Assembly: GCA_964600255.1 (NCBI GenBank)
Contig: CAZRIX010000001.1
Location: 118,542 to 182,541, forward strand
Length of the DNA stretch: 64,000 nucleotides
Direction of reading: 5' to 3'
From: an uncultured Candidatus Saccharibacteria bacterium
GTDB taxonomy: Bacteria; Patescibacteriota; Minisyncoccia; Phycocordibacterales; PALSA-1337
Below the pieces are notes generated by a model. That model saw only the letters and a program-made list of their open reading frames with translations, did no database searches and was not told the origin of the DNA. Positions within the stretch are counted from its first letter, which is position 1. Every line of letters begins with the position of its first letter. Both the position numbers and the translations under genes were made by a program. Positions 15,381-42,419 of this stretch are shown here, one piece after another.

Positions 15381-15381
15381 T

Positions 15382-16194: not shown

Positions 16195-16198
16195 TACA

Positions 16199-18012: not shown

Positions 18013-18013
18013 C

Positions 18014-18943: not shown

Positions 18944-19972
18944 CTATTTATTAAGACCTAGGAAATCAATATATTTATCGATATTACCTTGATAGCTATA
19001 CTGTTTTACCAATTTATTCAATGAGGCTTTGCCCATTTTCTTTCGTAACTCAACATCGTTTACCAGTATCTTTATTTTTTCTACCCACTCTTCAGTAGAT
19101 GCAGGTAGGTATCCAGTAACTCCATCATCTATAAAATACATGTTCTCACCTATTGGAGAAGCAATAACTGGTATACCAGCGGCCATATAGTCCAAGATCT
19201 TTAAACTGCATCTTCCCCTATTTGATTCATTATCAACTAATGGACAGACACCAATATCAAATCTGCTATTACCTTTCTGAATTTCCCCCTCCTTACCCCA
19301 ATCCAACCTATCCACAAACTCAATATTCAATCCAGGTATAGACATGGTATCTACAACTTCTTTAGATCCTAGACTGCCAATCAATAGGAATTTAATATTT
19401 ACTTTATCTTCTACCAACTTTTGTAGAGCTGGGAGCATCACTTTTAAGTTGTGTAGACTAAGCGGTGCACCACCCATCCAACCAAGCACAACTGGTTCTT
19501 TTACCCTTTCTACCTTGTATCTCTCAGCTAGAGTATAGTCCACCAAGTTTGTCATAACCATTACAGGTTTACCTCTAAGAGGACTCCATTCCGCCAAATA
19601 GTGACTAGCAACGATAAACTTGTCAGAAAAGAAAGCTAATACTCTAGGCGCAAGCGGCTTCTGTACCCAAGTAGCATCATCAAAATCGAAAATAAACTTT
19701 GGACGAAAAATTATCTTAACGATACAGATACAGATTATGAAATAATTACTAAAAATAGGATTCTGCAAAAAAACTACATCTGTCTTTCTCAATGAAAAGA
19801 TTATTTTCAAATAATCAATTCTAGCTTTCATTCGAGTGGTCTCGGTGTGGTATACAGGTGGGATCACAAGCTCGAACTTATAACCCCGTTCTTTTAGAAA
19901 ATCAGCTATAAAAAAGGCTCGATGTCTTGACCCTCCAGCACTTCTTACGGATTTGGTAAAAATATATAACAT
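18944..19972 (-). CDS. Glycosyltransferase family 4 (GT-B fold)
   Basis: C-terminal EGIPVIASPIGEN...GYL region typical of GT4. The first gene of the coupled minus-strand array as read 3'-most. Confidence 0.65.
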   Translation of the reverse strand: MLYIFTKSVRSAGGSRHRAFFIADFLKERGYKFELVIPPVYHTETTRMKARIDYLKIIFSLRKTDVVFLQNPIFSNYFIICICIVKIIFRPKFIFDFDDATWVQKPLAPRVLAFFSDKFIVASHYLAEWSPLRGKPVMVMTNLVDYTLAERYKVERVKEPVVLGWMGGAPLSLHNLKVMLPALQKLVEDKVNIKFLLIGSLGSKEVVDTMSIPGLNIEFVDRLDWGKEGEIQKGNSRFDIGVCPLVDNESNRGRCSLKILDYMAAGIPVIASPIGENMYFIDDGVTGYLPASTEEWVEKIKILVNDVELRKKMGKASLNKLVKQYSYQGNIDKYIDFLGLNK

Positions 19973-19973
19973 A

Positions 19974-21080
19974 TTATTTAAAAACTATTACTTTATACCC
20001 GATATAATTACAAACAACTGATACAAATACAGTTGAAATCATGGCTAGGTTAGCCCACACCTGCTCATTCAATCCGTATGGGGCGCCAATGATGTTTACT
20101 AACACATGTATTATACCAATATTTACTAGAGCTACTAAGCCAGAGACCATAAAAAAGTTTCTATAATTTCTAAGTTTAATGGCTTCTTTTTTTCTAAACA
20201 CCCAGTACGCGTTTATAAAAAACGCCTGTGTAATCACCAGCACGAACGATATTAGAGAGAACACATTAATCCAACTCCCCTTTGATATACCAGATGCGAT
20301 TATAAAAAGGTTAAAAATGGCAATATTTAAAAGCGTATTATATATACCCATAAACCCATATCGTACGAACTGATAAAAAGCTCCTGTATTGAGCCTAATA
20401 TAAAGTTTAAGGAGATGATACGCCATAACCACACTATCTCTGACAAACCTCACCGATGATTCAGAATCATCAATCAGATGAACTGGAATTAATATGGTTT
20501 TCAATCCTTGCTTCTGCGCATGATAGATCAATTCCACATCAAATATAAAGCCATCTGACTTTACATCCTTAAAAATACTCTTAGCTGCATGTTTCTTAAA
20601 GCCCTTGAAGCCACATTGTGTATCCTGAACCTTATCTATCAGAATAAAGTTGGCAAGGAATGAAAAAACCTTACTTCCCAATCTTCTATCAGTAGGTCTT
20701 GTACAAGCTGACATTGAGTCTGGTAACTCCCTTGAACCTAGCACAACCTCATATCCAGACTTTAGATGATTTATCGCAGTATCTAATGCGCTTAAATGAT
20801 ACGGTATGTCTATATCAGTAAAGAAAATATAATCTCCACTAGCCACGCTAATGCCTCTTTTTACAGCGGCACCTTTGCCATGATTTGTAACCAAATCTAT
20901 TACTTTGAATGGAGCTTTTAGTTGAGATAGTATATTCATACTTCCATCTGTGCTACCGTCATTTACGAAGATTATCTCATGATCGTGCCTTGATTCGCCA
21001 AAATAGTTTAGCAAAAAGTCGACCTTTTCATTTAGCCTTTTCTCATAGTTATATACAGGAATTACTAATGAAATTTTCAT
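19974..21080 (-). CDS. Polyprenol-phosphate glycosyltransferase (GT2, GtrB/ArnC-like) fused to GtrA-like membrane domain
   Basis: N-terminus ISLVIPVYNYE...FVNDGSTDGS...FTDIDIPY is GT2. The C-terminal ~120 aa have 4 TM segments with GtrA-like pattern. Confidence 0.8.
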   Translation of the reverse strand: MKISLVIPVYNYEKRLNEKVDFLLNYFGESRHDHEIIFVNDGSTDGSMNILSQLKAPFKVIDLVTNHGKGAAVKRGISVASGDYIFFTDIDIPYHLSALDTAINHLKSGYEVVLGSRELPDSMSACTRPTDRRLGSKVFSFLANFILIDKVQDTQCGFKGFKKHAAKSIFKDVKSDGFIFDVELIYHAQKQGLKTILIPVHLIDDSESSVRFVRDSVVMAYHLLKLYIRLNTGAFYQFVRYGFMGIYNTLLNIAIFNLFIIASGISKGSWINVFSLISFVLVITQAFFINAYWVFRKKEAIKLRNYRNFFMVSGLVALVNIGIIHVLVNIIGAPYGLNEQVWANLAMISTVFVSVVCNYIGYKVIVFK

Positions 21081-22516
21081 TTTTTACTTTTGAGAATAAC
21101 GTAACTATTCACTGACTTGTACTCTACATAGTTTGAAGCTATCTGAGGATTCTCTGCAAGCTTTCTAGCGTTTATTATCAGTACATCTGGAATACCTTTT
21201 CTTAGAACCTCTATTTGTTCCGTGCCGAATCCGAGAGATTCTGTTGGTTGCAAGTACTGATAAAAATTCTGATTAGGCAAAAATATCGTAACCTCAGGCA
21301 CATCGTAGACAAAGAAAGTACTGTTTTTTGGGAGATCAGACAAAGCCCTATTTAGATCATAAGATATGTTGCTATTGTAATGAGAAGCTACCCATGAACT
21401 AAAGAATAGTTGATAACCTTGAACCAAACAGATCAATGCAACTATAGCTGTTACAAGGTATTTGGATATATTTTTGTACTTAGCAACAAGCTCAGATTCG
21501 AACAAAACATATAAGTTGTTTATAAAGAATACAATAGCCAACACCTCACCTACAAAGTAATATCTGTACCAGCCGGCAGTTCTAAGATATGCCAGTGTCA
21601 CTAGTATTGAAAATACAAATGCAATAGACTCAACTAGACTTATACTGCCCTTCCTCACGATTCTGTATATATAAGACGCAATCCATACTAGCTGGAAGAA
21701 TGCAAAATAAATTGGACTAGCTTCGTGAAAAAAACGTAAGAAGTTATTCCAAATCACGGTGGTAATATTTTGTAAACCATAAGGATTGGCGTAGTATCCT
21801 AGAATACTCAATGTATTGTCTGAAGATAAAAACTGAAACTTGAACCACAGTGCCATCGGTATAACAAATGCAACAAAACCGTAAGAGAGGAATTTCCAAT
21901 TAAAAGAGATTTCCTTTCTATGAATCAGTACAGCAACTACAACTGCGCCACCAAGTAAGAAAAATATCGGTTTGGTAGCTAAACATAGTCCTCCAAATAG
22001 GCCGGACATAATGTATGGCAAGACTCTAGAATAATTTGTTTTAACTATTGAATTAACCGATACTAGAAATGTAAATAGATAAAATAACCCTGGTATTTCA
22101 CCTAATACACTTTTACCGTTACCATAGAGTATTGGAAAAGTCACAATTAATAGCAAACTTACAAGTGCTTTATTTGTCCCAAAAAGCTGTTTGACGAGAT
22201 AATAAATAGAATACAATAACAGAAGAATAAATACCGCCATCACGATTCTAGCCTGAAATATGCCGATACCAAAGATATCGATAGAAAATGCTATAGGAAA
22301 TATAAATGGAAAGCCACCTGTTACAAAGCCGCTAGAAACCAGTATGTCTGGCGCTACCTGTATACCCTGACGACCGTACACAGCCTGACTTATGGCTATT
22401 TGGTTGTATATACCCTCATCATACCAAACAGGCGGGCTCTCAGTTAGCTTAAAGAGTGATAAATAGGCACCAAAACATAGTAGAATAGTCAGGATTATCT
22501 TTGATTTTCTGTTCAT
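21077..22516 (-). CDS. GT-C fold glycosyltransferase, family 39/83 (ArnT/PMT-like)
   Basis: 479 aa, polytopic, with an early extracytoplasmic-loop motif PPVWYDEGIY typical of ArnT/PMT enzymes. A 4-nt overlap with the GtrB-like gene. Confidence 0.7.
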   Translation of the reverse strand: MNRKSKIILTILLCFGAYLSLFKLTESPPVWYDEGIYNQIAISQAVYGRQGIQVAPDILVSSGFVTGGFPFIFPIAFSIDIFGIGIFQARIVMAVFILLLLYSIYYLVKQLFGTNKALVSLLLIVTFPILYGNGKSVLGEIPGLFYLFTFLVSVNSIVKTNYSRVLPYIMSGLFGGLCLATKPIFFLLGGAVVVAVLIHRKEISFNWKFLSYGFVAFVIPMALWFKFQFLSSDNTLSILGYYANPYGLQNITTVIWNNFLRFFHEASPIYFAFFQLVWIASYIYRIVRKGSISLVESIAFVFSILVTLAYLRTAGWYRYYFVGEVLAIVFFINNLYVLFESELVAKYKNISKYLVTAIVALICLVQGYQLFFSSWVASHYNSNISYDLNRALSDLPKNSTFFVYDVPEVTIFLPNQNFYQYLQPTESLGFGTEQIEVLRKGIPDVLIINARKLAENPQIASNYVEYKSVNSYVILKSKK

Positions 22517-22564
22517 TTCAGTATATTGTTACATGTATTATACTTATTGAGATTCAATAAATCA

Positions 22565-23452
22565 ATGAAGAAACTAATCAAAAAACCACTCAATATAATC
22601 CTATCTATCCTACCCCTTTCGTTCGCAAATTACGTTTACACAAAAATTATTGGCAAGACACCATTAATTCACTTTGTTAATAAAATCATCAAACTGACTA
22701 TCCCGAAAGAACTGAACATAGAAGAAGGTAAAATAATATTAAACCAGGACGATGTAGCGGTTTCTGGCATGCTGGCACTAGGTGCATTTGAACCATATCA
22801 AATGGCATTATTCAGAAAAACCATAAAGCCGGGAATGACAATTGTAGACATTGGAGCAAATATTGGTCTATACAGTGTAATAGCTGGCAAACTAACAGGA
22901 AAAAATGGTAGAGTGTTCTCTTTTGAGCCAGAAAAGAAGAATTTTGAATACTTAAATAAGAATGTAAATGCAAATAATCTAAAGAATGTTCAAGTAGATA
23001 CCACAGCAATTTCAAATGAGAAAGCTACTAGAAATCTATTTCTATTTTCTGATAATACAGGCTCATATTCTCTAGTGGACAATAGAAAGACAAATATCTC
23101 AGTACAGGTACAGACCGACACACTCGATAATATACTAAAATTGAAGGCAGTAGATCATGTCGATTTCATAAAAATGGATATCGAAGGAGCTGAGTATCTA
23201 GCCTTTGAAGGAATGACCGAGATTATAAATAGAAGCAAAAAACTGACAATGATGATTGAGTTCTTCCCGAATGCGATCAAGAGATTCAATAAAGAACCGC
23301 TACAATTTTTAAATAAAATAAAATCATTAGGTTTTAAAATTTCAGAGATAAGTGAAGATAATAAAACAACCATTGAGATTACTGATTTAGATAAATTCCT
23401 ACGTGATTTTCCAAAAGGTGAAGTAGCGACTAACCTTTTACTAGAAAAATAG
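22565..23452 (+). CDS. FkbM-family methyltransferase
   Basis: DIGANIGLYSV...FSFEPEKKNFEYL...MDIEGAE pattern. Confidence 0.75.
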   Translation: MKKLIKKPLNIILSILPLSFANYVYTKIIGKTPLIHFVNKIIKLTIPKELNIEEGKIILNQDDVAVSGMLALGAFEPYQMALFRKTIKPGMTIVDIGANIGLYSVIAGKLTGKNGRVFSFEPEKKNFEYLNKNVNANNLKNVQVDTTAISNEKATRNLFLFSDNTGSYSLVDNRKTNISVQVQTDTLDNILKLKAVDHVDFIKMDIEGAEYLAFEGMTEIINRSKKLTMMIEFFPNAIKRFNKEPLQFLNKIKSLGFKISEISEDNKTTIEITDLDKFLRDFPKGEVATNLLLEK

Positions 23453-23461
23453 AGTTTTGTT

Positions 23462-24694
23462 TTATTTGTACAAGACTTCGTATTCCTCAACCTGCTTTTC
23501 AATATTAAACTTCTCCACAACCCTCTCATATCCTGCATCACCAAACTTTTTTGCTAGACTGTCATCTGAAAGTAATCGATGTATATTATCCGCAAAAGTC
23601 TGGATATCAAATGGATTAATGATATAACCAGTCTCATTATCAACTACCACTTCCCTTGCACCACCAAAACAGGTTGCAATCACTGGTTTTTTGCTTATCA
23701 TAGCTTCTAGATTTACCATGCCAAATGTATCAAAGCATACAGATGGAAATACCACCAAGTCGGCAGATGAATATACCACCGGTAACTGACCTTCGTTCAA
23801 CCAACCTGTACTTATTACTTTTATATTATTACTTTGCGCCTGCTTTACAATATTCCTTGTATAGTCATCCATTTGGCCGACTATTATCAGAGCGATATTT
23901 GTTATTTTTGATGTTATAGAAGCCAAAGCATTTATTAGTTGCTCTCCTCCTTTAGCTTTCGTTAGTTTACCTGCAAAAAGGATAACCTTATCTCCTACTA
24001 TATTATTCTCCAACCTATACTTTTCAACTAGTTTTTGATCCACCTTCCAGATATCTGCATCCAGAGCGTTGTGCACAACTTGGATATTTTTAATACCGTT
24101 AACCTCAAGAGCTTTTTTTAGCTCATTACTAACAGCACATACTTTATCTACATACCTTAGATAGAACTTTATGATCGCATTTCTGAAAGGATTATATCTC
24201 TTTCTAAAAGTCTTAAGTTGAGATATTGGACTGACTTTATAGTTAAAATTGTCTAGTTTCTTTATATCACTCTCATCTATAAAGTCGGTGAACTTACCGT
24301 AGTGAAATAGCATGCAGTCATGTGCGGTTAAGATCACTTTTGCACCATAATTTTTCGAAATTCGAAGTGAATTGTATGAAATATAGTTATGGATATTGTG
24401 TGCATGTACTACATCTGGTTTGACCTCCTCTACTATTTTTTTTACAAACTTACTAGATATTGGATTGTATAAAGACAGATAACCTCTCCACTTTTCACCG
24501 TAATTCACCTTATATGCATAAATCTTTATACCGTCTATTACACTAGTGATTGCATCTTTCTCATTCCTTACAGCTGTAACAACTGAAACGTCATGTCCTT
24601 TGTGCACCATACCTCTGGCAACATTAAAAGCTACAGCAGCTGCGCCTCCTTGAGCAAATGGTGGAAAATCATCAGATAAAATTAGTATTTTCAT
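23462..24694 (-). CDS. Glycosyltransferase family 4
   Basis: MKILILSDDFPPFAQGGAA N-terminus and a C-terminal GT1 domain (FPSVCFDTFGMVNLEAM). Confidence 0.85.
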   Translation of the reverse strand: MKILILSDDFPPFAQGGAAAVAFNVARGMVHKGHDVSVVTAVRNEKDAITSVIDGIKIYAYKVNYGEKWRGYLSLYNPISSKFVKKIVEEVKPDVVHAHNIHNYISYNSLRISKNYGAKVILTAHDCMLFHYGKFTDFIDESDIKKLDNFNYKVSPISQLKTFRKRYNPFRNAIIKFYLRYVDKVCAVSNELKKALEVNGIKNIQVVHNALDADIWKVDQKLVEKYRLENNIVGDKVILFAGKLTKAKGGEQLINALASITSKITNIALIIVGQMDDYTRNIVKQAQSNNIKVISTGWLNEGQLPVVYSSADLVVFPSVCFDTFGMVNLEAMISKKPVIATCFGGAREVVVDNETGYIINPFDIQTFADNIHRLLSDDSLAKKFGDAGYERVVEKFNIEKQVEEYEVLYK

Positions 24695-25815
24695 TTTAAT
24701 AATTCATCAACAAACGGATAGACCATTTCTGGCTTTATATTATCAATATGGCTTCTGGCTATTTCTTTATTATACGTTCTAGAATTCATTATATGTATTT
24801 CTGGTTTTCTACCTTCTATATATACTAATTTATGAATATCACCTCTTGGAGGCTGCTCATTCTCATCCATTGATCCTATTATATCAATTGTTGGTACATT
24901 GAAAGCCTCTGCAACATATATCAAACCTGTATCTACAGCTATTAGCAGATTCATTTTTGAGACGAATGCTTTGATTTCTGACATATTGAACTTACTGTTC
25001 GCATTTATGACTCGGTCTTCGCCAACAAAATCACTCATGATTTTTTCACAAACTTCCTTATCTTGCTTTGCGCCTAATAGAAAAACTTTTGAATCGAAAT
25101 TCTTGAGAATGTATTTAGTAATAAGAGTGAAGTTATTAGTGTCCCAGTACTTTATTGAATTTCCTACGCCAGGTACGATTGCCACATTATATTTATGAGA
25201 AGCTCCCGAACTTCCAAGAAAACTATCAGCAGCACTCATATCTTTTGCTGAGTAAGACAGATTCTTCCTTGTAATATCGCTAGATATTCCTATTGGTTCC
25301 AACAACTTCAAATATTCTCTAGGTGCGTAATTGCCCATTATATGTGGCACGACCGTGAGTAATGGAAACATCAATCTATATGATTTTGTTTGGTATGGAG
25401 AGAATCCATTTTCAACTCTTGGTACCGTAATCACTTTTACACCAGCCAGAAAAAAAGTTGCTGATGCAATAAAGCTTGGTGTTGTTATAACGGCTGCATC
25501 ATATTTGTTTTCCCTGATTGAAGAAATATTCTTAAACAAGTCCATTTCATTCCATGAGATATAGTCGTCTACATCTGTATTACCCGCAAGCAAATCTTTG
25601 TATATAGCACCAGCACACACAGTAACTTTTATATTCCTATCGAAATCCTTAATGGCTCTATAAATAGGTGTGGCACACACCATATCACCCAGCTTGGAAG
25701 CAGGCATAACGACAATCTTTGTAACCTTACTGCCCTTTACTTTTGATCTACCGCGCACGATAGCGTACAAGTATGAAATGCCTACCAGTAATATATTTTT
25801 AATAAAATTAGTCAT
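24691..25815 (-). CDS. Glycosyltransferase family 9 (heptosyltransferase-like)
   Basis: KLGDMVCATP motif near the N-terminus and a GT9 length and pattern. ATGA overlap with the neighbour. Confidence 0.7.
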   Translation of the reverse strand: MTNFIKNILLVGISYLYAIVRGRSKVKGSKVTKIVVMPASKLGDMVCATPIYRAIKDFDRNIKVTVCAGAIYKDLLAGNTDVDDYISWNEMDLFKNISSIRENKYDAAVITTPSFIASATFFLAGVKVITVPRVENGFSPYQTKSYRLMFPLLTVVPHIMGNYAPREYLKLLEPIGISSDITRKNLSYSAKDMSAADSFLGSSGASHKYNVAIVPGVGNSIKYWDTNNFTLITKYILKNFDSKVFLLGAKQDKEVCEKIMSDFVGEDRVINANSKFNMSEIKAFVSKMNLLIAVDTGLIYVAEAFNVPTIDIIGSMDENEQPPRGDIHKLVYIEGRKPEIHIMNSRTYNKEIARSHIDNIKPEMVYPFVDELLK

Positions 25816-26947
25816 GTATAAATTTTAGAATATTTCTTGCACGAATTTCCCAAGTGTACTGTTGAACATCTATTAATGCTTGCTTTGACTTTTGATTTAG
25901 ACTTTCTACATCAGCGAGAGCCACTTTTATTGTATTACCTAGATCTACTGGATCATCAGGCTGAAAGAAAGTTGCATTCCCCTCATTTAGCACTTCACGT
26001 AAAGACGGCAGGTCTGATGCAAGTATAGGGACACCACTAGCCATGTATTCAAATAATTTTAGAGGAGATGTGTTGTACTTTGATATACGCTCCTTAGCGG
26101 AATTTGGAATCACTAGAATATCAGCCGACTTCAAATAATGCGATATCTCTTCATGCTTCTTGTAGCCTGTAATCACGATATTATCGGAATAACTCTTGTT
26201 AGCACAGAATTGCCTAAACTGTGGCAATGTATCATCAGATCCTCCAACAATAACTAGAACTATATCATCTGAAAGATTTTGGAATGAGTCTACTAAGTTA
26301 TATACTCCCTTCCAAGGAAAAAGATTGCCTAAGTACAGTACTATTTTTTTATCATTTGGTAGTCCCAACTTATTTCTGATAGTGTACTTGTCTTCTTTAA
26401 CACTATCAAACAATGTAAGATCTACTGCATCTGGTGCAATATGTATATCATCCTTATTATAGCCAATACCAATCAATTCCTCTTTTAGAAAACTTGTAAT
26501 AACAATAATTTTCTTTGCCAACCTGATCCATCGAATATAGAAAGAATCACTCTTTGAAAGGTAGTGTATTTCTAGGAAAAGTTTAGCTGTTTTTAATCGT
26601 AAAAAAAGTAGTGGTAAAATATCTCTACTATAACAAGTATCAGCTTTTTCAATCTTTAATCTAAACACAGATATAGAAAACGAAATCTTCTCAATCAAGA
26701 AAGGTATTATATCTCCTAGAAATCTGAAATGCGCAGCTTGAATCACAGGTATGTAAATCACGGAAAAATTATTAGGTATTCCATAGTAAGCATACAAATC
26801 CTCAGAAATATCAACTTCCTTAATAACTTTCTTAGGTATTACCAATGTAACCTTTTCTGTATTTGCAAAAGTACTACACATTTTGGCAACAGCATAACCG
26901 AACGCCTTCTTTGTTGGTAAGTTTGCATGTGTAATATAGTAAAGCAT
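25808..26947 (-). CDS. Glycosyltransferase family 4
   Basis: C-terminal E...FEYMASGVPILASD GT1 motif. Confidence 0.75.
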   Translation of the reverse strand: MLYYITHANLPTKKAFGYAVAKMCSTFANTEKVTLVIPKKVIKEVDISEDLYAYYGIPNNFSVIYIPVIQAAHFRFLGDIIPFLIEKISFSISVFRLKIEKADTCYSRDILPLLFLRLKTAKLFLEIHYLSKSDSFYIRWIRLAKKIIVITSFLKEELIGIGYNKDDIHIAPDAVDLTLFDSVKEDKYTIRNKLGLPNDKKIVLYLGNLFPWKGVYNLVDSFQNLSDDIVLVIVGGSDDTLPQFRQFCANKSYSDNIVITGYKKHEEISHYLKSADILVIPNSAKERISKYNTSPLKLFEYMASGVPILASDLPSLREVLNEGNATFFQPDDPVDLGNTIKVALADVESLNQKSKQALIDVQQYTWEIRARNILKFIHD

Positions 26948-26948
26948 T

Positions 26949-29808: not shown

Positions 29809-29809
29809 A

Positions 29810-30574: not shown

Positions 30575-30590
30575 GCTAAAAGATTAGCAT

Positions 30591-31820
30591 TTATAAGGCT
30601 TTTTGAAAAGAATCTATCACCTGACTTACTGTCATATCGAGCTCGGTATTTGAGAAATTCTCCCTAGAGAGTCTTAGGGCATTTTCAGACAATTTCTTCC
30701 TAAGATTGATATCCTTAAGCATTACCAGAGATTCAGAAAATTCTCGAGGATCCGAAGCAAACATCACATCGGTACCGTGACTAAATGAATACTCGCCAAT
30801 CCCTCTTTCTGAAGTAATGGTTGGAAATCCTCTAGTCAATGATTCAAAAATCTTCTGTTGCATACCTGCCCCGAACAAAGATGGGATCAGAGCTATATCC
30901 ATTTTTGACATGAATTCATCTATATTCTCAACAAAACCCACATACTCAACATTGTTGACCAAGTACTTATTAAATTCTGTTGGAAATTTATTGCCAATGA
31001 TATAGAACCTGAAGTCATCAGGGTTGGTCTTATAAATCTCTGGTGCGATCCGTAGCAAGACTTCAAGTAAAGCTTGTTTATTATGCTCAACCGTATATGT
31101 TGAACCCATGAAGAATACATTTAAAACTTTCTTGTCTTGAACTTGGTGTGGCTTGTCCAAGTAACTAGGTAGAGATCGAAGTGGTAGATTCGCAACTTTA
31201 TTTGCTCCAAGTTTCAAGTATATTTTTCTTTCCTTTGGTGTTATAGAAAATATAGCGTCGCTTTTCTTGGAAACAATGTACTCGCCTATAAATTTTGGAA
31301 TGTATTTGATCAGGTTAATAATACTTTTACCATCTTCTTCTATAAAATGATTTGGTTCAAAATTTATTGAACGTGTAACGATAGGTATGCCCGCACTCTC
31401 CACAAGATGATATAGTGGCCATAAGTAGCTATATTCAAACCATACCAGGTCCGGCCTCCAGCTATCAATCTCCCACTTTAATGCATTCTGAATACCTATC
31501 TCACTATATTCAAAAGCAGCGCCATCCACATACAGTGGATTGCCTAATTTTCTAAAAAACTTATCAAACTTATCCTTTGTAGAAAGCTTTTTATTACTAT
31601 ACTTATATGGAACTCCGATAATCTTTATATTCAACTCGTCTGCAATTTGTTTTACAAAATCAACACTCTGCCATTCGTTTGACTTAGCAATAACTCGAAC
31701 ATCATGACCCAACTTTATAAGCTGCTTTATTCCACATGCCCTATCCATCTGTTCAGCCCCTCTATAAGGAAAAGGTAGAGCCGGCATTACCATCAAAATT
31801 TTCTTTTTTGTTACTTCCAT
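30591..31820 (-). CDS. Glycosyltransferase (GT4/GT-B fold)
   Basis: N-terminal Rossmann-like KILMVMPALPFPYRGAEQ and a C-terminal E...FESLTRGFP region. Confidence 0.6.
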   Translation of the reverse strand: MEVTKKKILMVMPALPFPYRGAEQMDRACGIKQLIKLGHDVRVIAKSNEWQSVDFVKQIADELNIKIIGVPYKYSNKKLSTKDKFDKFFRKLGNPLYVDGAAFEYSEIGIQNALKWEIDSWRPDLVWFEYSYLWPLYHLVESAGIPIVTRSINFEPNHFIEEDGKSIINLIKYIPKFIGEYIVSKKSDAIFSITPKERKIYLKLGANKVANLPLRSLPSYLDKPHQVQDKKVLNVFFMGSTYTVEHNKQALLEVLLRIAPEIYKTNPDDFRFYIIGNKFPTEFNKYLVNNVEYVGFVENIDEFMSKMDIALIPSLFGAGMQQKIFESLTRGFPTITSERGIGEYSFSHGTDVMFASDPREFSESLVMLKDINLRKKLSENALRLSRENFSNTELDMTVSQVIDSFQKAL

Positions 31821-32668
31821 AGATTTAGAATATGTTTCTTGGTGTCCAAATATAAGATGGCTATATGATACCTAACTATAGTAAGTTCGATACCGATAGG
31901 CATAGAATCCTTGAATCCATATAACGCATACATTTTAGGTAGCCTATATAGTAAATAGCCGAGAATTGTCCTTAACCTTTTATATAAAGTCCAGTACATA
32001 AAGTCGCCAAACCTCCTAATAGGCGCCACATCGACTTCAAAGCCTGCATATCTACTAAAGTATGCCCATACATTGCGTACCCTCTCCTCCGGCCATATAA
32101 AGTTATAATATGATTTCATGGTACCTACAGGAAACTTCTTGGTGTCCCAGTAGAGACGATCGTGGACCTGTCCTCTAAATCTAGCTCCGACCGATCTGTG
32201 TACTAGCCTAGTTTGGTATGATGGATAGCTAGCCTCATGTTTGATTTCGACGATATTATTATTCTTCTCAAGAAAAATTCTCGTAGGCATTCTATATACA
32301 AGATGTTCTGGTTTTGGATCAGAAGTTATTTTTCTTATTTCCATAACAGCCTCGTCGGTCAAAGTATCGTCTGAATCCATAAAAAAGTACCAGTCATTGG
32401 TTGCCGCATCCATATTTCTTTGTCTGACCGTTGCCTTATCTTTTACACATCTGACATTCTTTTCATCTGTATCATATTGTCTTATAACTTTTGCACCAAA
32501 TGACTTAGCTATTTCTACCGTGTTATCCGTACTATTTCCATCACACACTATAACCTCATCAAAATCTCTGAATGACTCTAGGCACTTGGCAAGACCCTCC
32601 GCTGAATTCAGAGTCAAAATTCCAACCGAACATTTTATTTTATTACTATCCATATTATTTAATTTCAT
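31811..32668 (-). CDS. Glycosyltransferase family 2
   Basis: CSVGILTLNSAE...VCDGNSTDNT...DSDD GT-A motifs. Confidence 0.8.
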   Translation of the reverse strand: MKLNNMDSNKIKCSVGILTLNSAEGLAKCLESFRDFDEVIVCDGNSTDNTVEIAKSFGAKVIRQYDTDEKNVRCVKDKATVRQRNMDAATNDWYFFMDSDDTLTDEAVMEIRKITSDPKPEHLVYRMPTRIFLEKNNNIVEIKHEASYPSYQTRLVHRSVGARFRGQVHDRLYWDTKKFPVGTMKSYYNFIWPEERVRNVWAYFSRYAGFEVDVAPIRRFGDFMYWTLYKRLRTILGYLLYRLPKMYALYGFKDSMPIGIELTIVRYHIAILYLDTKKHILNLWK

Positions 32669-33689
32669 TCTTTAGATTATGGATTAGCTTCACTAGTGAG
32701 TGTGAATCTTCTACCATTTGTCTCAATTTTATTCTTGTTTCATTTTTATTATTATTCAAAACAAAATTCTTGAGTTCATTGGACAAGAAGATAGCATCTC
32801 CAGGTTTAAATGTTAGTCCATAAGGATAAAGTATTGGTAGTAATGCATCATTTGAACTCATTACCAGCGTTCCACATGCCATAGCTTCTAGCGCAGCTTT
32901 ATCTAGACTTCCTGTAGTACTTGTATGAATAAATAGATCTGCACTTTTTAATAATGGCACGATCTGTGTCTGGGTCTTTGGTCCAACAAAGTTTACAATC
33001 GTTTCTAGAGACTTTTCAGTAACAACTTTTTTAATATCTTCAAAATATTTCTTATCATCATTTGTTACAGGTTCCCCGACTACATCTAGACTTACATCGA
33101 TATCATTACGAATTTGTGATACGGCATTCAATATTGTCACCAAATCTTTTGATCTTGAGATTCTGCCGATAGTTATAAGTTTTAGTTTATCTGTGTATAT
33201 CTTATTTTGATCAAAAGAAAATAAGTCCAAATCTATACCATGTGACATAACCTTCAGCTTCTCAGTTTTTACTCTAAAACTTTCGGCAGATGCAGAAAAA
33301 ACTTTCTTTACAAAAAGAAGTGCGAGTTTTAGAGACGCCGTTACACTCTTGTGTGTATACCAAAGATATACATCCTTTCCAATGACCTTCCAATACAATC
33401 CGCCAAGTAGCGCGTAGATCTGGTTCATATGAATAAAGACCTTATCATAATCATTACGTTCACTTACAATGTATTTATAAAAGTTAAACACATACTTAAT
33501 TCTTGATACTCCAGCTTCCTTTCCAAGTGAGAGTACTTTTACATTCTTTGGTAGACTATATTCACCCTTATACAAACAAATTACAATAACTGATTCGAAG
33601 TTTTTTGAAAATTCCTCGATCCATCTATGGAAAAAACCGAGTACTGAATCGTTCTTATCAACTTTCTGAGTAAGGATTAATAGTTTCAT
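32655..33689 (-). CDS. Glycosyltransferase family 4
   Basis: C-terminal E...ALEAMACGTLVMSS motif. Confidence 0.75.
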   Translation of the reverse strand: MKLLILTQKVDKNDSVLGFFHRWIEEFSKNFESVIVICLYKGEYSLPKNVKVLSLGKEAGVSRIKYVFNFYKYIVSERNDYDKVFIHMNQIYALLGGLYWKVIGKDVYLWYTHKSVTASLKLALLFVKKVFSASAESFRVKTEKLKVMSHGIDLDLFSFDQNKIYTDKLKLITIGRISRSKDLVTILNAVSQIRNDIDVSLDVVGEPVTNDDKKYFEDIKKVVTEKSLETIVNFVGPKTQTQIVPLLKSADLFIHTSTTGSLDKAALEAMACGTLVMSSNDALLPILYPYGLTFKPGDAIFLSNELKNFVLNNNKNETRIKLRQMVEDSHSLVKLIHNLKNEIK

Positions 33690-33718
33690 GATGTGTATGA
33701 TAATTATAACTTAATATA

Positions 33719-34774
33719 TTATTGCAGAGTTTGAACCACCTTATCCGCTATATCCTTCGCATTCCAATCTGCAATGACCGCGTCGACTTCTTGTGCAATA
33801 CCTACATTTGTTGAGACTATTTTAAGTCCACTTGCTTGAGCCTCTTTAAAGACCATACCGTAACCCTCATACCATGATGTAACTAGTAGCACATCGGCAC
33901 CCGCATAATATGGACTTAGATCGGTTTGCCATCCTTCAAATACCACATTCTTCCCTTCATTTATCTTATATGCTTGTTTTTTTAGACTATCTATACATGC
34001 ACCTGAACCAACGACAACCATACCGCAGCTCTTATCTTTTTCATAAATATACTTCATAGCATCGATTGCCATACTTACATTCTTCTCATACTCCAACCTA
34101 GATACAACCAAGATAATTTTAGCGAATTGTGGAAACTTCTTTCGTAGATCAAAACTAGGCACCAAACTTTTGGTATATGTAGTGTTGATATCAATAGGCT
34201 TTAGAACAATCTTTGCTTGCGCAAAACCTCTATTTAATAGTGAGTCAGCAATCTTTCTTGAGACAACCCTTATAACCTGTGCATGTGGTAATGTGAATCT
34301 TGATATAAATAATCTAATGCGGTTTATCATAGCGTTCTTGATACCGATACAATTACTTACAAAATACGGACTAAACATTTCTGTATGAATTTGAATAAGT
34401 AGATCTGAATCCTTTCTAAGGTTTGCAATATATTTGCCAGCGAGCGCAGTTTCAAAAGGATCCTGGCAAGTTACCAGTAGAGGTATTTCTTTACTTATAC
34501 CCTTAAGGATTGTCTTCCCCAAGCTACAAGCATCTTTTACATAGTTTAGCCTTAAAAGAGAATTGGTTGAATATATTTTACAACCAGCTGAGATAGTAAT
34601 TGGTTCTATTTTCTTGGTAGAAAAAACAATAATATGTAATTCTTTGTACAACTTCGAATATTCAACCATTCTTGCCCTAACCTGACTTTTCTCCATAAAG
34701 ATAAGTCGGTCGGTCGATATCATTATCGCAACTGAATTGGAATAATCCTTGTACTCGGTCTTATAGTTTTTCAT
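33719..34774 (-). CDS. Glycosyltransferase family 4
   Basis: C-terminal EGYGMVFKEAQASGLKIVSTNVG motif. Confidence 0.7.
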   Translation of the reverse strand: MKNYKTEYKDYSNSVAIMISTDRLIFMEKSQVRARMVEYSKLYKELHIIVFSTKKIEPITISAGCKIYSTNSLLRLNYVKDACSLGKTILKGISKEIPLLVTCQDPFETALAGKYIANLRKDSDLLIQIHTEMFSPYFVSNCIGIKNAMINRIRLFISRFTLPHAQVIRVVSRKIADSLLNRGFAQAKIVLKPIDINTTYTKSLVPSFDLRKKFPQFAKIILVVSRLEYEKNVSMAIDAMKYIYEKDKSCGMVVVGSGACIDSLKKQAYKINEGKNVVFEGWQTDLSPYYAGADVLLVTSWYEGYGMVFKEAQASGLKIVSTNVGIAQEVDAVIADWNAKDIADKVVQTLQ

Positions 34775-35780
34775 AGAAAGAAATTATTTCTTTACCAATA
34801 TCTTCCCAAGTGTGTACCCAGTTAAAGTTTTTTATCTTGTCCGCCTGCAGAGCTCGGTTCTTTGGATCAGACATCCAAGTAATCTTTTCTATCATATCCT
34901 TTTCACTTGTTGGATCAACAAAAATAGCACAGTCCCTTACTCGGTCTGTAATACCATTCTCCTTTGTTAAAATAAACGGTGTGCCAAGTCTAATAGCATC
35001 AAAGATCATATTTGGACTAATGTCACCTATAGATGCTAGCACTACTGCATATGATCTACGCATTCTTTCTTGGAAGTTGTCGTATACAGCCTTTGTTGTA
35101 TCAAATTCTATATTGTCGAGACCAGCTTTCTTTGTATTTGACTGAGCTATTTTGAATGCTTTCTTTAGGGCATCAATGTTCTTCCAGACCAAGTCACGAG
35201 TACCAGCGACGAAGACTCTATTTTCTGGCTCAATAGGTTCCTCCTTTTTTCCACAAAAGTTCTCTACAATTCTGCTTTTTCTTTGATCCAGCTTGTAGGC
35301 ATTTTCAAAAATACCCTTTTGCCAATTTGTACTATATATTACCAATGCAGCATTCCTCAAAGAATCTCCACCGAGTTTATATATTAGTTTTTCTTTGCGA
35401 GTAAGTTTACCGAGTGATGTATTATAGAAATCCCTAAAGAGTACTAACTCACCTGTTCTTTCTACATAACTCTCCCACAAGAAATCTCCACCTGTGCGGA
35501 TAATGTATTTTTTGTTCATGAGCTTACATGCATACATTGTAGGTACAGCGGCACTCCATGTATCGAGTACCAATATTAGATCTGCATTCCAACCCTTTCT
35601 AAATATCTTCAAAAAGAAAAGAATGTGTCTAACGAATGTTGGAAATGCTCTTTCCCATCGGTATGCAGCCACCTTTACATCATGACCTTGTGACTTCCAT
35701 GTTTCGTATAGATTGCGTGCATATTGCGCTGGACCACCAATATCTGGTGGATATATACCTGTAGATATTAGTATTTTCAT
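34761..35780 (-). CDS. Glycosyltransferase (GT-B fold, family uncertain)
   Basis: N-terminus MKILISTGIYPPDIGGPAQYARNL typical of GT4/GT1 N-domains. Confidence 0.55.
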   Translation of the reverse strand: MKILISTGIYPPDIGGPAQYARNLYETWKSQGHDVKVAAYRWERAFPTFVRHILFFLKIFRKGWNADLILVLDTWSAAVPTMYACKLMNKKYIIRTGGDFLWESYVERTGELVLFRDFYNTSLGKLTRKEKLIYKLGGDSLRNAALVIYSTNWQKGIFENAYKLDQRKSRIVENFCGKKEEPIEPENRVFVAGTRDLVWKNIDALKKAFKIAQSNTKKAGLDNIEFDTTKAVYDNFQERMRRSYAVVLASIGDISPNMIFDAIRLGTPFILTKENGITDRVRDCAIFVDPTSEKDMIEKITWMSDPKNRALQADKIKNFNWVHTWEDIGKEIISFYEKL

Positions 35781-36967
35781 ATATTAGATAAGAATACCTT
35801 ATTCTTCATATCACTTGCAATGAGGCTCCATTGATACTTGTTTTTGACCATATCCAGAGCCTTCGCAACAACACGATCTCTTAGATCTTTATCATCCATA
35901 ATCTCTTCAACTTTTTTGGCTATACTTGCAGGATTGTTGACGTCACATAGTAATCCTGTCTCCCTATCAACCAGAAAATCAACGATACCGCCAACTGGAG
36001 TGGCGATAACTGGTATACCAGCCGCCATCGCTTCAATATATGAATTACCAAAACCTTCTGACAAAGATGGGCGCACGAAGATATCTGATGCATGGAGATA
36101 CTGTGGCATCTCTAGATGAGAGATATATCCCAAAAATATAACTCGCCCTTCCAAACCATTCTGCTTCACTCTCAACTTGAGTTCTTCTTCTTGATATCCT
36201 GTTCCTAGAATTAAAAATTTTACATTTGGAGGAAGTAACTTCAATGCATCGATCACATCATCAGTTGCATTTTTCTTTACAAGTCTAGATGTGGTAATGA
36301 GGAATACATCACCAGGTTTTTTACCAAGTTTATTCTTTAGATCATTTAGTTCGGTTTCACTTTTTCTATTTGAAAATAAATCTAGATCAACCGCATTTGG
36401 AACAATGGTAATAGGACATGTTGTGCCCATATGTCGAGCCCAGTCCTCAAGGAACTTTGAGATGACCTGCACGAAATCCGCGTGAGTAAATATTTTCTTA
36501 AATAGACCCCCAAAAATTCCTTCCCTTCTCTCAAAATTATCCCCCTCTTGTAGTGATAATATAAAAGGAACTTTATTATGAACCTTTTTGAATAGATACG
36601 CTGCAAATCCTGCATAACTTGCCATCATTGCCCATGTAGCATCATATCCATTTCTCTTTTGCAGTTCTAATGCTTTTATGAAAGCTTGGAATGGAAAAAG
36701 GATTTTGGATAAAGGAAAAATCTGGGAACTTTTCATATTTGCTCCAAACCACGGCAGACCAACCCTGTACACATTCACATTACCTATTTTCTCGAAACTG
36801 GAACCTTTCTTGCGCAGAGTTATCATATCGAACTGTATATCTTTGCTAGATATTCTGTCAGTAATCTCCTTTATTGCAACTTCAGCCCCACCTATCACTC
36901 TTGGATAGTATACTAGAGAAAATATCAGTACTCTCTTGGGTTTTACTGTATTAGTTTGATTTTGCAT
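35777..36967 (-). CDS. Glycosyltransferase family 4
   Basis: GGAEVAIKE N-domain and a C-terminal EGFGNSYIEAMAAGIPVIAT EX7E motif. Confidence 0.85.
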   Translation of the reverse strand: MQNQTNTVKPKRVLIFSLVYYPRVIGGAEVAIKEITDRISSKDIQFDMITLRKKGSSFEKIGNVNVYRVGLPWFGANMKSSQIFPLSKILFPFQAFIKALELQKRNGYDATWAMMASYAGFAAYLFKKVHNKVPFILSLQEGDNFERREGIFGGLFKKIFTHADFVQVISKFLEDWARHMGTTCPITIVPNAVDLDLFSNRKSETELNDLKNKLGKKPGDVFLITTSRLVKKNATDDVIDALKLLPPNVKFLILGTGYQEEELKLRVKQNGLEGRVIFLGYISHLEMPQYLHASDIFVRPSLSEGFGNSYIEAMAAGIPVIATPVGGIVDFLVDRETGLLCDVNNPASIAKKVEEIMDDKDLRDRVVAKALDMVKNKYQWSLIASDMKNKVFLSNI

Positions 36968-36971
36968 GGTA

Positions 36972-38927
36972 TTACTCTACCCTAAGAACATCTCTGAGTA
37001 CATCTTCTGGTACCTCATTTTTTGTGTCACTTTTTATCTGTGTTTTTTCAGAATTCTTCAGATTTTCTATTGGTTTTGATACTACCTTTGGTTTGTCTGT
37101 GCTCATATTTGCATCACCATTTTTTGTTAATCCTGGGTTGGCAGCGAGGATTGCTGACAATGCACTCTTTAATTCATTTACGCGAGCTGGTGAAGCGTCC
37201 TTATGATTGTTATTTTTTGGAGTATTTGTAAGTGAGCTTAGCGATACGGACTTAAGCTTAGGTAGGTTCACATTATGATGAACAAAAGGTCTTTGATTAT
37301 TATTATGTCCATGATGATTCTTATCACCGTGATGATTTACGTGCTGTCCCACATGATGACCTGTGCCATGACTGTGATGTCCATTGTCGGCTACTTTAGG
37401 TGCCGTGGCTGTGTTTGTATGCATCTGAACAGGCTCTACGTGTATTGTAGGTTGTGGATTTGATATCGTGGGCTTAGCAGTATTTACAACGGTTGGCGCA
37501 GGTGTGACTGGTTTTGGTTCAGCCGCTTTGACATCAGTTGTCTTTGATTCTTTTGGCTTATCTTCTACCTTCACTGTTGCAGACTTAGGTGGTGCTTTGA
37601 CTGGTATTATAGGGGCCATCCAGTCATCGATAGCTTTCTCAACCTCAGCTCTCCTGTTTGAGAATTGTATTCTAGACTGTTCAATAACCTTCTCTTTACT
37701 TGAACTCTCTGGTTTTTCGATTGGTGGCAAGGTGGTAGCAGAAAAAGGTGCCGAGCTGATACCATCGATCATTAATTTTAAATATATTTGGAAAATACCC
37801 AAGTTCACAATATCTTCTGCAGTAAACTGCGGAGCAAATTCCTTCTCTAGAACTTCAGCATCAAAAGCTCCTACTCGAAAGACAATCATAGTACCAACGT
37901 TACCGAATACAGCAGCTCTAACCTCCTCTTCCATTTGCTCAATATACTGATGAGCCATTGTAAGGTTCAACTTGTACTTTCTTGCCTCAGATAGAATATC
38001 TGCAAAACTTTCATTGGCGAAAGATTGGAACTCGTCTACGAATAGATAGAAGTTTGGTAGAGTCTTGAGTACTCTATCTGGAACATCCGCACGTGAAAGT
38101 GCTGCTAGATAGATCTTTGTAATCAACATTCCCCCCAGAAGATTGGCATTTGATTCTCCTATTCTTCCCTTTGATAGGTTTATGATAAATACCTTACCAC
38201 TATCCATCATCTTTCTTATGTCAAAAGATGATTTTGGCTGACCGATCATATTACGTATCAGTGCATTTGCAGTAAACTGTCCGATCTTGTTCTGGATCGC
38301 TGGCACGGCTTCAGCGGCCATTCTTTCTGTATAGTTTGCAAACTCTTGTACCCAAAAAGCTTTTACTGATGAATCTGTGACATGAGAGATTACCTGCTTT
38401 CTGAACTCTTTATCAGACAACATTCGGTTTACACCGAGCAATGTAGCATCTGGATATTCTAGTAGTGCCAGAAGAGTGTTTGTAAGGATATATTCCATTC
38501 TTGCTGACCAAGCGTCTTGCCATATCTTTTTGAAGGTACTCATCAGACCTGATACGACTAGGTGTCTTTTATCAGCATCAACATTTTCCAAAACATTAAA
38601 TGAGATCGGATTGTCTATATCGAACGGAGCAAAATACACTACATCCTTTTGTCTATGTTCCGGTACATACTCTAATAGGAGCTCAGCTGTTTTGCCGTGA
38701 GGATCGATGAAAGCCATACCCTCACCATTCTTTATATCCTGCACAGCCATGTTCTCAAGTAAGGTAGACTTACCCATACCTGTCTTTCCTATCACGTAGA
38801 CATGCTTTGTACGATCCTTTGCTTTAATACCAAAGGTTACCCTCTTATTTCTGGCATCAGTTTGTCCAAAATATGTGATCCTTTCTTCATTCATAAATAT
38901 AGAACGTTTATGTATATATTCTAACAC
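36972..38927 (-). CDS. VirD4/TraG/TraD-like (DUF87-type) P-loop ATPase with disordered Pro/Ala/His-rich C-terminal tail
   Basis: Walker A GKTGMGKST and Walker B YLFVDEFQ. TMAHQYIEQM resembles the conserved coupling-protein motif. The last ~200 aa are low-complexity (KPKESK...HHSHGTGHHVGQHVNHHGDKNHHGHNNN). No N-terminal TM segment. Only 4 nt separate it from the downstream GT gene. Confidence 0.65.
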   Translation of the reverse strand: MLEYIHKRSIFMNEERITYFGQTDARNKRVTFGIKAKDRTKHVYVIGKTGMGKSTLLENMAVQDIKNGEGMAFIDPHGKTAELLLEYVPEHRQKDVVYFAPFDIDNPISFNVLENVDADKRHLVVSGLMSTFKKIWQDAWSARMEYILTNTLLALLEYPDATLLGVNRMLSDKEFRKQVISHVTDSSVKAFWVQEFANYTERMAAEAVPAIQNKIGQFTANALIRNMIGQPKSSFDIRKMMDSGKVFIINLSKGRIGESNANLLGGMLITKIYLAALSRADVPDRVLKTLPNFYLFVDEFQSFANESFADILSEARKYKLNLTMAHQYIEQMEEEVRAAVFGNVGTMIVFRVGAFDAEVLEKEFAPQFTAEDIVNLGIFQIYLKLMIDGISSAPFSATTLPPIEKPESSSKEKVIEQSRIQFSNRRAEVEKAIDDWMAPIIPVKAPPKSATVKVEDKPKESKTTDVKAAEPKPVTPAPTVVNTAKPTISNPQPTIHVEPVQMHTNTATAPKVADNGHHSHGTGHHVGQHVNHHGDKNHHGHNNNQRPFVHHNVNLPKLKSVSLSSLTNTPKNNNHKDASPARVNELKSALSAILAANPGLTKNGDANMSTDKPKVVSKPIENLKNSEKTQIKSDTKNEVPEDVLRDVLRVE

Positions 38928-38955
38928 ATATATAGAAATGTGTTATTATGAATTT

Positions 38956-40494: not shown

Positions 40495-40540
40495 TTTTTT
40501 AGTATTAATATTCTATTACTCTTATATATTATCATATATA

Positions 40541-40570
40541 TTGCATCACACAAACAAAAAACCACCGTTA
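40541..40570 (-). terminator. Rho-independent terminator after major pilin gene
   Basis: ACCACC-GTTA-GGTGGT hairpin followed on the minus strand by a T-run (plus-strand AAAAAA at 40545-40550). Confidence 0.6.
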
Positions 40571-40601
40571 GGTGGTATTCTGTTTCTAAAATACTCTTAG
40601 A

Positions 40602-42412: not shown

Positions 42413-42419
42413 ATTTGTA

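Follow-up and report, generated by a model that had tools for sequence, protein, structure and literature searches.

Introduction

Glycan pathways that depend on an ATP-binding cassette (ABC) transporter are exemplified by the Escherichia coli O8/O9a O-antigen, with Wzm/Wzt and the WbdD methyl cap, and by the S-layer glycan (slg) clusters of Geobacillus stearothermophilus, with Wzm/Wzt, a methyl cap and the O-oligosaccharyltransferase WsaB. To our knowledge, no ABC-dependent glycan cluster begins with a gene for an ATPase resembling the coupling protein of a type IV secretion system (T4SS), and we know of no precedent for a motor with the fold of a type IV coupling protein (T4CP) in polysaccharide export. 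Anchor-less coupling proteins do exist in monoderm conjugation systems, such as TraJ of pIP501. Here, we describe a T4CP-like ATPase whose gene heads a run of glycosyltransferase (GT) genes in a 64,000-nucleotide (nt) stretch of an uncultured patescibacterial genome (contig CAZRIX010000001.1, positions 118,542 to 182,541), hereafter the window, to which all coordinates refer unless a locus of a relative is named. The interpretation that we favor, with about as much belief as doubt, is that the protein is an orphan coupling-protein homologue, probably a nucleic-acid motor, that is co-transcribed with glycan genes and does not power glycan export.

Homologues of this general type are abundant in the Patescibacteria, or candidate phyla radiation (CPR). 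A survey of 2,918 genomes found 5,713 VirD4-type homologues, only 148 of them near virB4; thousands of such genes lie beside no secretion system (Quinonero-Coronel et al. 2025, PMC12102498). The same study reports that coupling-protein genes are often distant from virB4, that T4SSs are common in Paceibacteria, and that a VirD4-type homologue is dispensable in S. epibionticum, where the T4SS is essential; exaptation of the orphan homologues to other functions, in its words, "cannot be ruled out" (PMC12102498).

Results

A VirD4/TrwB-like ATPase

The ATPase gene is located on the minus strand at 36972..38894 and encodes 640 amino acids (aa) from an ATG at 38894. The mechanically called open reading frame (ORF) runs up to a GTG at 38927, but the ATG is the likelier start because a predicted promoter-like site lies inside the longer ORF and because the homologue P0001 was called at the equivalent start. 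This site, ATAACA-17-TAGAAT with a TG upstream, was found by consensus scan on the minus strand at 38918..38946, in the short spacer between the ATPase gene and a divergent PAP2 gene. The conserved motor core spans aa 1-429 (37608..38894, minus strand) and contains the Walker A motif GKTGMGKST at aa 36-44 (38763..38789) and the Walker B motif FYLFVDEFQ at aa 282-290 (38025..38051), the key residues of which are invariant in an alignment of 78 short- and long-form homologues.

Pfam matches above the cut-offs were obtained for T4SS-DNA_transf (35.6, cut-off 20.1) and TrwB_AAD_bind (35.5, cut-off 20.5), and also for DUF87 and TraG-D_C, whereas the NCBIfam models for TraD, VirD4-like and CedD proteins reached 28-49 bits against cut-offs of 250-650. 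The closest PDB entry by sequence is TrwB (E 7e-5), albeit at an identity of only ~14%. We modeled the protein with AlphaFold2 using the 78-sequence alignment, which includes the long-form homologues described below, and obtained a predicted local distance difference test score (pLDDT) of 89.4 and a predicted template modeling score (pTM) of 0.87; a model built from 27 sequences of at least 81% identity to the query had a pLDDT of 56 and was discarded. In the retained model an all-alpha insertion, at about aa 107-217, is situated between Walker A and Walker B. The top Foldseek match is again TrwB (E 6e-14, template modeling score 0.60-0.63, ~415 aligned columns), with HerA, Cag-beta, DotL and DndH-C below it. 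Given that Pfam, the PDB sequence search and Foldseek agree on a TrwB-type fold, assignment to the VirD4/TrwB class appears to be correct, and among the folds that the initial annotation had named for comparison, VirD4 is a better match than HerA/FtsK. The HerA/FtsK-SpoIIIE class was rejected, as there is no Pfam FtsK_SpoIIIE match and HerA structures score 0.43-0.54, below the 0.58-0.62 of TrwB in this comparison, despite the match to DUF87, the HerA central domain.

The initial annotation described the ATPase as soluble and of the T4SS coupling-protein/DUF87 kind, and both parts of that description hold. No hydrophobic segment is present in the protein (the maximum Kyte-Doolittle value for a 19-mer is 1.34), and Walker A starts at residue 36. 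A membrane anchor supplied as a separate protein was not found either: neither the window nor loci L001-L083 encode a homologue of the DUF8128 N-terminal domains seen in the relatives P0190, P0206 and P0244, and no conserved small (membrane) ORF lies upstream of the ATPase gene, between it and the DUF4015 gene found there in relatives. The ATPase is a soluble, anchor-less P-loop protein of predicted VirD4/TrwB-type fold. No second copy exists in the window or in any locus compared, and genes for VirB4, VirB6 and a relaxase are absent from the 64-kb window proteins scanned and from the annotated loci of relatives. Two other assignments were considered and discarded. A role in defense was examined with PADLOC, which returned a weak partial match to mads8 (E 3e-15) and matches to HerA for the ATPase and none for the GT4 proteins, and a role as a replacement for FtsK was set aside, FtsK being mentioned in CPR papers.

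Beyond the core, the protein ends in a disordered tail of ~210 aa that is rich in Pro, Thr, Lys and Ala (36972..37607, minus strand; pLDDT <50 beyond aa 434). The tail is variable in length among relatives, which total 520-811 aa. It does contain the dense His cluster reported in the initial annotation, with 11 His in 28 aa at 37296..37379. However, the proposal that this strain-specific patch is a conserved metal-binding motif fails, as it is missing from most relatives: P0001, the core of which is 98% identical, has only 4 His in its entire tail and no patch, and at least nine His within any 30-aa window occur in just 8 of 117 close homologues. What is conserved is an internal motif, LPKLKSVSL...RVNELKxALAxIL (37143..37265), and a C-terminal peptide, NEVPEDVLRDVLRVE (also given as KEVPEDVLRDVLRVE; 36975..37019), both on the minus strand. 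The consensus of the peptide is KE(V/I)PEDVL(R/K)xVLKV(E/D); 101 of 120 close homologues have it, as do almost all of 66 species-level tails. Because a long flexible linker ends in a conserved short peptide, the arrangement suggests a docking element.

Probable co-transcription with the first glycosyltransferase genes

The gap between the ATPase gene and GT4_1, the first GT gene, is 4 nt (36972/36967), and a sequence scan found no terminator-like structure near this junction, where the ATPase gene ends. The ATPase and the first GT genes are therefore likely to be co-transcribed, as the initial annotation held. The broader proposal of a single 17-gene transcript covering 18944-38927 fared less well. 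All 17 ORFs are present where they had been placed and form a tight run, but that run is split by a plus-strand FkbM gene at 22526..23452, with a spacer of 9 nt on either side, into 13 co-oriented minus-strand genes (38894->23462), one opposite gene, and three further minus-strand genes (22516->18944). The last three genes are preceded by a predicted sigma70-like site of their own, TTGATT-17-TATAAT (22565..22537, minus strand, 10/12 match by consensus scan), located 21 nt before the ATG of the PMT_2 gene. Given the interruption and this separate promoter-like site, the layout is 13 + 1 + 3 genes, and not a single 17-gene transcript. The same-strand junctions in the region (n=14) measure -17, -14, -14, -10, -8, -4, -4, -4, +1, +1, +1, +4, +16 and +29 nt, most of them within the range of -17 to +4 nt that had been given for all, with the +29 nt at 33719/33689 and the +16 nt at 30591/30574 exceeding it.

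Tight packing is partly a genome-wide property, as the coding fraction of the window is ~94% and the median same-strand gap, -4 nt in the region, is just +8 nt outside it. Sigma70-like sites within coding regions occur at about the rate expected by chance (72 observed against 78.5 +/- 9.1 expected, by consensus scan). The two best such sites on the minus strand, at 22537..22565 and at 23222..23249 (11/12 match), both lie antisense within the plus-strand FkbM gene.

Conservation of the ATPase-glycosyltransferase linkage

In a species-level scan, with one genome per species, 593 loci were confirmed and the best 80 kept, and their ORFs were called and compared with the window proteins. Downstream neighbors were counted in the 72 of these best 80 loci that had downstream sequence, and upstream DUF4015 genes in 59 loci. 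Identity in the ATPase core is 85-98% across the best 120 protein clusters, and those with a name are all from Patescibacteria. A GT4_1 homologue is the first same-strand ORF of at least 150 aa downstream of the ATPase gene in 49 of 72 loci, a figure that does not count independent events because the loci are phylogenetically related. The intervening gap is no more than 5 nt in 18 of these 49, and GT4_1 is located within the next two ORFs in 4 further loci; an unrelated gene follows the ATPase in only 5 of 72. Homologues of the GT4 module that starts with GT4_1 (32655..36967) come after the ATPase gene in most related loci, and the whole GT array accompanies GT4_1 in 40 of 44. A few loci, for example L086, have kept GT4_1 with the ATPase gene while the remaining array is gone. 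The linkage is found within the Paceibacteria, in a clade that has Taylor-, Nomura-, Yonath- and Wolfebacteria among its members. Since GT4_1 is kept downstream in so many species-level loci, the linkage is inherited and not a one-off event, which speaks against the suggestion in the initial annotation of a fortuitous fusion of operons. Synteny thus shows the linkage to be conserved, but clade-specific.

Other forms of the ATPase family

When 1.84 billion representatives were searched exhaustively, 22,539 clusters (at 50% identity) reached E<=1e-3, and 6,074 reached E<=1e-30. Many members, at ~50% identity, have a long form, in which an N-terminal transmembrane helix and a ~400-aa domain (PF26449/DUF8128, precomputed) precede the same core. 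The long-form core is ~45-52% identical to the window ATPase over its full length and shares its invariant residues, and the long-form protein P0206 ends in a disordered tail with a related motif, KE(I/V)..(D/E).L(K/R)..(I/L). The long-form gene has the same surroundings in 5 of 5 loci, from CPR2, WS5 and others: it comes after genes for Pth/DprA, TopA and a Sigma70_r4/HARE-HTH protein, the dcw cluster FtsQ-MurG-FtsW-MraY is convergent with it, and a GT array is absent. The preceding Sigma70_r4/HARE-HTH protein is ~335-367 aa long in L084, L085, L090 and L091, where the long-form gene is at 8001 in each, and in one further locus. In L086 (Tayloriibacteriota), Mur ligase and MraY genes are situated within 1..7394, ~5 kb upstream of the DUF4015-ATPase-GT4_1 trio; nearness to cell-wall genes is common to this locus and the long-form lineages.

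CxxC-x17-CxxC zinc ribbons are present in the tails of about 12-19 of 150 family representatives. They characterize a short-form branch (Minisyncoccia, Jorgensenbacteria), with a ribbon in 120 of the 120 best matches of P0194, and in 3 of 3 loci of this branch the ATPase gene lies beside tandem genes for Cys-rich proteins of ~570 aa and has no GT neighbors. The Cys-rich proteins are paralogous, soluble and ~546-585 aa long, have no Pfam match, and are encoded in tandem arrays of 2 to 5 (L087 1092..7956 and 12422..15732; L088 10507..13993; L089 1..6930). One that was inspected has CxxC...CxxC ribbons at both ends, resembling the ribbon in the neighboring ATPase tail. In L087, a zinc-ribbon locus, ComEC is encoded 6 kb downstream. 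In addition, an S1 domain is located in the tails of P0133 (Pfam E 4e-22), P0226, P0229 and P0246, while no fusion to a glycan-related domain was found among the family members. Given the S1 and zinc-ribbon fusions and the DprA-TopA-helix-turn-helix neighborhoods, the family points to nucleic acid and not to carbohydrate. Literature searches on DUF8128, on DUF87 in CPR bacteria, and on TraG with a glycosyltransferase in Parcubacteria found nothing.

The glycan locus

Pfam and NCBIfam bear out the enzyme calls of the initial annotation, with nine GT4, one GT2, one GT9, an AsnB-type amidotransferase, Methyltransf_23, FkbM, PMT_2 (GT-C) and a GT2+GtrA fusion in the region. All are encoded on the minus strand except FkbM. 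The conserved GT4 module consists of GT4_1 (35777..36967), GT4_2 (34761..35780), GT4_3 (33719..34774) and GT4_4 (32655..33689), assigned by Pfam. It is followed by the variable part of the operon (23462..32668), which encodes GT2, GT4_5, a Methyltransf_23 S-adenosylmethionine methyltransferase, the AsnB-type amidotransferase, GT4_6, GT4_7, GT9 and GT4_8. Beyond the FkbM gene, the three-gene unit at 18944..22516 comprises a PMT_2 (GT-C) glycosyltransferase (21077..22516), a GT2+GtrA_DPMS_TM fusion of the polyprenyl-phosphate sugar synthase type (19974..21080), and GT4_9 as its last gene. What had been described as a GtrA/GtrB-GT39 trio therefore has the enzyme types named, but in two genes instead of three, because GT2 and GtrA are fused.

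This region is the minus-strand half of a glycan locus of ~29 kb (7553-36967). Tail to tail with it, with 0 nt between them (18943|18944), is a plus-strand operon (9936..18943; Pfam and ORF map) that starts with Wzm (ABC2_membrane, 9936..10769) and Wzt (ABC_tran and Wzt_C, a C-terminal glycan-binding domain, 10714..12036), followed by an FkbM-like protein, a DUF268 methyltransferase, a GT, a protein without assignment, GT11, GT2 (17017..18012) and Methyltransf_23. On the minus strand at 7553..9805 is a gene for a protein combining Wzy_C, of the O-antigen-ligase/PglL family, with TPR, which resembles a ligase or O-oligosaccharyltransferase. Adjoining the locus are an OmpR-type response regulator (6895..7566) and a minus-strand fusion of DedA (VTT) with a PAP2 phosphatase (5506..6873), plausibly a protein for recycling the lipid carrier, polyprenyl phosphate. 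No match to Glycos_transf_4 or Bac_transf was found among the window proteins scanned, and the initiating phosphoglycosyltransferase (WecA/WbaP type) may be encoded elsewhere in the genome.

Wzm permease, Wzt ATPase with its Wzt_C domain, and an array of cytoplasmic GTs (nine GT4, GT2, GT9, GT11 and others) are all features of an ABC-transporter-dependent pathway, and the GtrB-like GT2, the GtrA-like flippase element and the GT-C transferase make up a Gtr-type extracytoplasmic set. Judged by its gene content, the locus encodes a glycan pathway that depends on an ABC transporter and includes ligation outside the cytoplasm and decoration of the Gtr type. Its five methyltransferase genes (two FkbM, two Methyltransf_23 and DUF268) could serve to cap the glycan chain for recognition by Wzt. 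Because the pathway is of the conventional Wzm/Wzt type, with an ATPase of its own in Wzt, no exotic glycan exporter is needed. The initial annotation had suggested that the coupling-protein-like ATPase could energize glycan export or assembly; the Wzm/Wzt genes and the Wzy_C ligase-like gene lie just outside the coordinates that it covered, and with these genes present, and other branches of the family lacking GT neighbors, that proposal is not upheld.

Upstream neighbors

Divergent from the ATPase gene is a gene for a PAP2-family membrane phosphatase (PAP2_3 by Pfam; 38956..39963, plus strand), the start of which is approximate (the mechanical ORF begins at 38875). It separates the ATPase gene from a complete type IV pilus cluster (39985..48351, minus strand) encoding PilM, a PilN-like protein, PilO, a small protein, PilB, a response-regulator receiver, PilT, PilC and two pilins, as assigned from translations, Pfam and the annotated twin locus L081. 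The PAP2 arrangement is the same in L081-L083. The pilus cluster sits upstream of the ATPase gene in the window and in L002, L003, L007, L012, L013 and L081-L083, in place of DUF4015, and in L007 a pilin gene stops 5 nt before the ATPase gene. The initial annotation had held that a link to pilus genes in relatives would speak against a tie to the glycan genes; such a link does exist in the window and its closest relatives, yet the GT linkage persists alongside it.

Within the pilus cluster, the stand-alone response-regulator receiver gene (43481..43870) lies between PilB and PilT, and a hairpin with a T-run (40576..40561) lies between the two pilin genes. Further along is a minus-strand gene (49862..52489) for a candidate surface or adhesion protein of 875 aa, in which bacterial Ig-like repeats (Big_7, Big_3_3) are combined with a peptidoglycan-binding domain at the C-terminus. 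Rfam detected no regulatory RNA in the region studied, and its only matches in the whole window are two minus-strand tRNA genes (55339..55425 and 62403..62490) of 87-88 nt, the size of tRNAs with a long variable arm.

Discussion

We propose the following mechanism for the locus. The host is a Paceibacteria (Patescibacteria/CPR) bacterium, in which cytoplasmic GT4, GT2 and GT9 enzymes would build a heteropolysaccharide that is modified by the AsnB-type amidotransferase and several methyltransferases, exported via the Wzm/Wzt transporter of the locus itself, and processed outside the cytoplasm by the Wzy_C/TPR ligase-like protein and the GtrB-like/PMT_2 pair. The T4CP-like ATPase would stand outside this chemistry. 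It would form an ATP-driven ring motor, tethered to a partner via the C-terminal peptide at the end of its disordered tail, and act on a nucleic acid or nucleoprotein substrate in DNA transfer or uptake. The ATPase and GT4 genes would share a promoter in this clade, with the gene order inherited clade-wide, and the linkage would reflect co-expression in a very compact genome rather than mechanical coupling to glycan export, a role that is unsupported given the Wzm/Wzt exporter in the locus and the branches of the family without GT neighbors. The ATPase may serve a T4SS in trans, or DNA uptake through the pilus and ComEC. In this respect, the competence genes comEC, comF and dprA are dispensable for growth and comEC mediates transformation (Wang et al. 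2023, PMC10633639), which is compatible with, without being evidence for, a role of the orphan ATPase in DNA uptake.

Several observations weigh against this proposal. The tail of the window ATPase has no nucleic-acid-binding domain of its own. Linkage to the GT genes is strongly conserved in the clade, even if related loci are not independent witnesses to it, and it is not confined to GT4_1: where GT4_1 is missing from the downstream position, its place is mostly taken by another glycan-locus gene, namely a homologue of the plus-strand GT2 gene (17017..18012) in 9 of 72 loci and a same-strand homologue of Wzy_C-TPR in 5 of 72. Upstream, a DUF4015 (glycoside-hydrolase-like) gene that is missing from the window lies within three ORFs of the ATPase gene in 47 of 59 loci. 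With the ATPase embedded in glycan genes on both sides, co-expression alone is a weak explanation for synteny across a clade. It could therefore be argued that the ATPase is a working part of a glycan or glycoconjugate machine, an exapted motor that energizes assembly, export or secretion together with GT4_1 and its neighbors. Synteny is the sole positive support for such a role, and comprises the conserved, co-oriented and often 4-nt adjacency to GT4_1 in 49 of 72 loci, the other glycan-locus genes that stand in for GT4_1 in 14 more, the upstream DUF4015 gene, and the retention of GT4_1 beside the ATPase gene in L086 and a few others despite loss of the array; exaptation is also left open in the survey of orphan homologues (PMC12102498). 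Nevertheless, an exporter is already encoded in the locus, the fusions seen in the family are to S1 and zinc-ribbon domains and never to a glycan-related one, the long-form and zinc-ribbon branches have no GT neighbors, and full-text literature searches returned no T4CP-fold motor in polysaccharide export. Moreover, the whole array comes along with GT4_1 in 40 of 44 loci, so the ATPase and GT4_1 are not clearly a separate unit, and we judge a glycan machine of this kind to be unlikely. A more specific version, in which a T4CP motor has been exapted into envelope biogenesis in this clade and the conserved module of DUF4015, ATPase and GT4 forms a functional unit, with a peptide-docked ring ATPase as the driving force in assembling or secreting a glycosylated surface product, strikes us as quite unlikely. 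Candidates for the product would be a pilin bearing glycans, an S-layer protein or a lipoglycan, and such ATP-driven glycoconjugate machinery, if true, would form a class not known before.

Two further explanations attach no mechanistic meaning to the position of the ATPase gene. It may be that the protein is a bona fide coupling protein that delivers protein effectors or DNA to a patescibacterial T4SS encoded elsewhere in the genome. TrwB/VirD4 is its closest known structure, the lack of an anchor has a parallel in TraJ of pIP501, and coupling-protein genes are often remote from virB4, T4SSs being common in Paceibacteria (PMC12102498). On the other hand, VirB4, VirB6 and relaxase genes are absent from the 64-kb window and the annotated related loci, the NCBIfam TraD/VirD4 scores fall far under the cut-offs, only 148 of 5,713 homologues are near virB4, and in S. 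epibionticum the homologue is dispensable where the T4SS is essential (PMC12102498); we hold this to be rather unlikely. Alternatively, the juxtaposition could be purely positional, with the GT genes on an internal promoter of their own, the ATPase gene a separate unit, and the 17-gene operon an artifact of gene density. A genome that is 94% coding with tight junctions throughout, sigma70-like sites that are about as frequent in coding regions as chance predicts (72 vs 78.5 +/- 9.1), and an FkbM gene that demonstrably breaks the run all accord with this. However, a same-orientation 4-nt gap has been kept over many species and the ATPase gene shows no terminator-like structure at its 3' end, which makes a purely positional relationship very unlikely in our estimation. 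We therefore retain an orphan nucleic-acid motor, co-transcribed with glycan genes, as our working interpretation.

The family to which the ATPase belongs can now be split into forms: anchor-less with a C-terminal peptide, with a zinc-ribbon or S1 tail, and membrane-anchored with DUF8128. Each form has a characteristic neighborhood, namely a GT4 array, tandem Cys-rich proteins, or DprA-TopA-helix-turn-helix. For a protein that most genomes of a major bacterial radiation encode, this offers testable hypotheses, namely a motor for DNA uptake or transfer, or a function in the envelope, and sharpens, without answering, the question of what orphan coupling proteins do in CPR bacteria.

Comparison with known systems

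Like the E. coli O8/O9a and G. stearothermophilus slg clusters, the locus has Wzm, Wzt carrying a carbohydrate-binding domain at its C-terminus, numerous cytoplasmic GTs, several methyltransferases that may cap the chain, and a candidate ligase or oligosaccharyltransferase of the Wzy_C family. It differs from them in that no initiating phosphoglycosyltransferase was detected in the window and in that its host is a CPR monoderm. With GtrA/GtrB/Gtr systems it shares a GT2 polyprenyl-phosphate sugar synthase with GtrA next to a GT-C (PMT_2) enzyme, although the window has two genes rather than three and the GT-C enzyme is of the PMT_2 type and not a phage Gtr(type) protein.

The ATPase has in common with the orphan T4CP homologues surveyed in Patescibacteria the phylum, VirD4-type homology and a location away from virB4 (PMC12102498). 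Absent from that study are any account of subfamilies, of the anchor-less form, of the tail motifs, of the S1 and zinc-ribbon fusions and of the DUF8128 long form, and any mention of a GT link (the word "glycosyltransferase" occurs in it 0 times). The long-form relatives (CPR2, WS5, Howlettbacteria) differ from the window ATPase in having a membrane anchor and the ~400-aa DUF8128 domain, and no GT array. With TrwB of R388 and other VirD4-type proteins, including Cag-beta and DotL, the window ATPase shares a P-loop domain with an inserted all-alpha domain. Unlike them, it has no N-terminal transmembrane anchor and no T4SS or relaxase genes nearby in the window; instead, it carries a long disordered tail with a conserved end peptide of its own and heads a glycosyltransferase operon.

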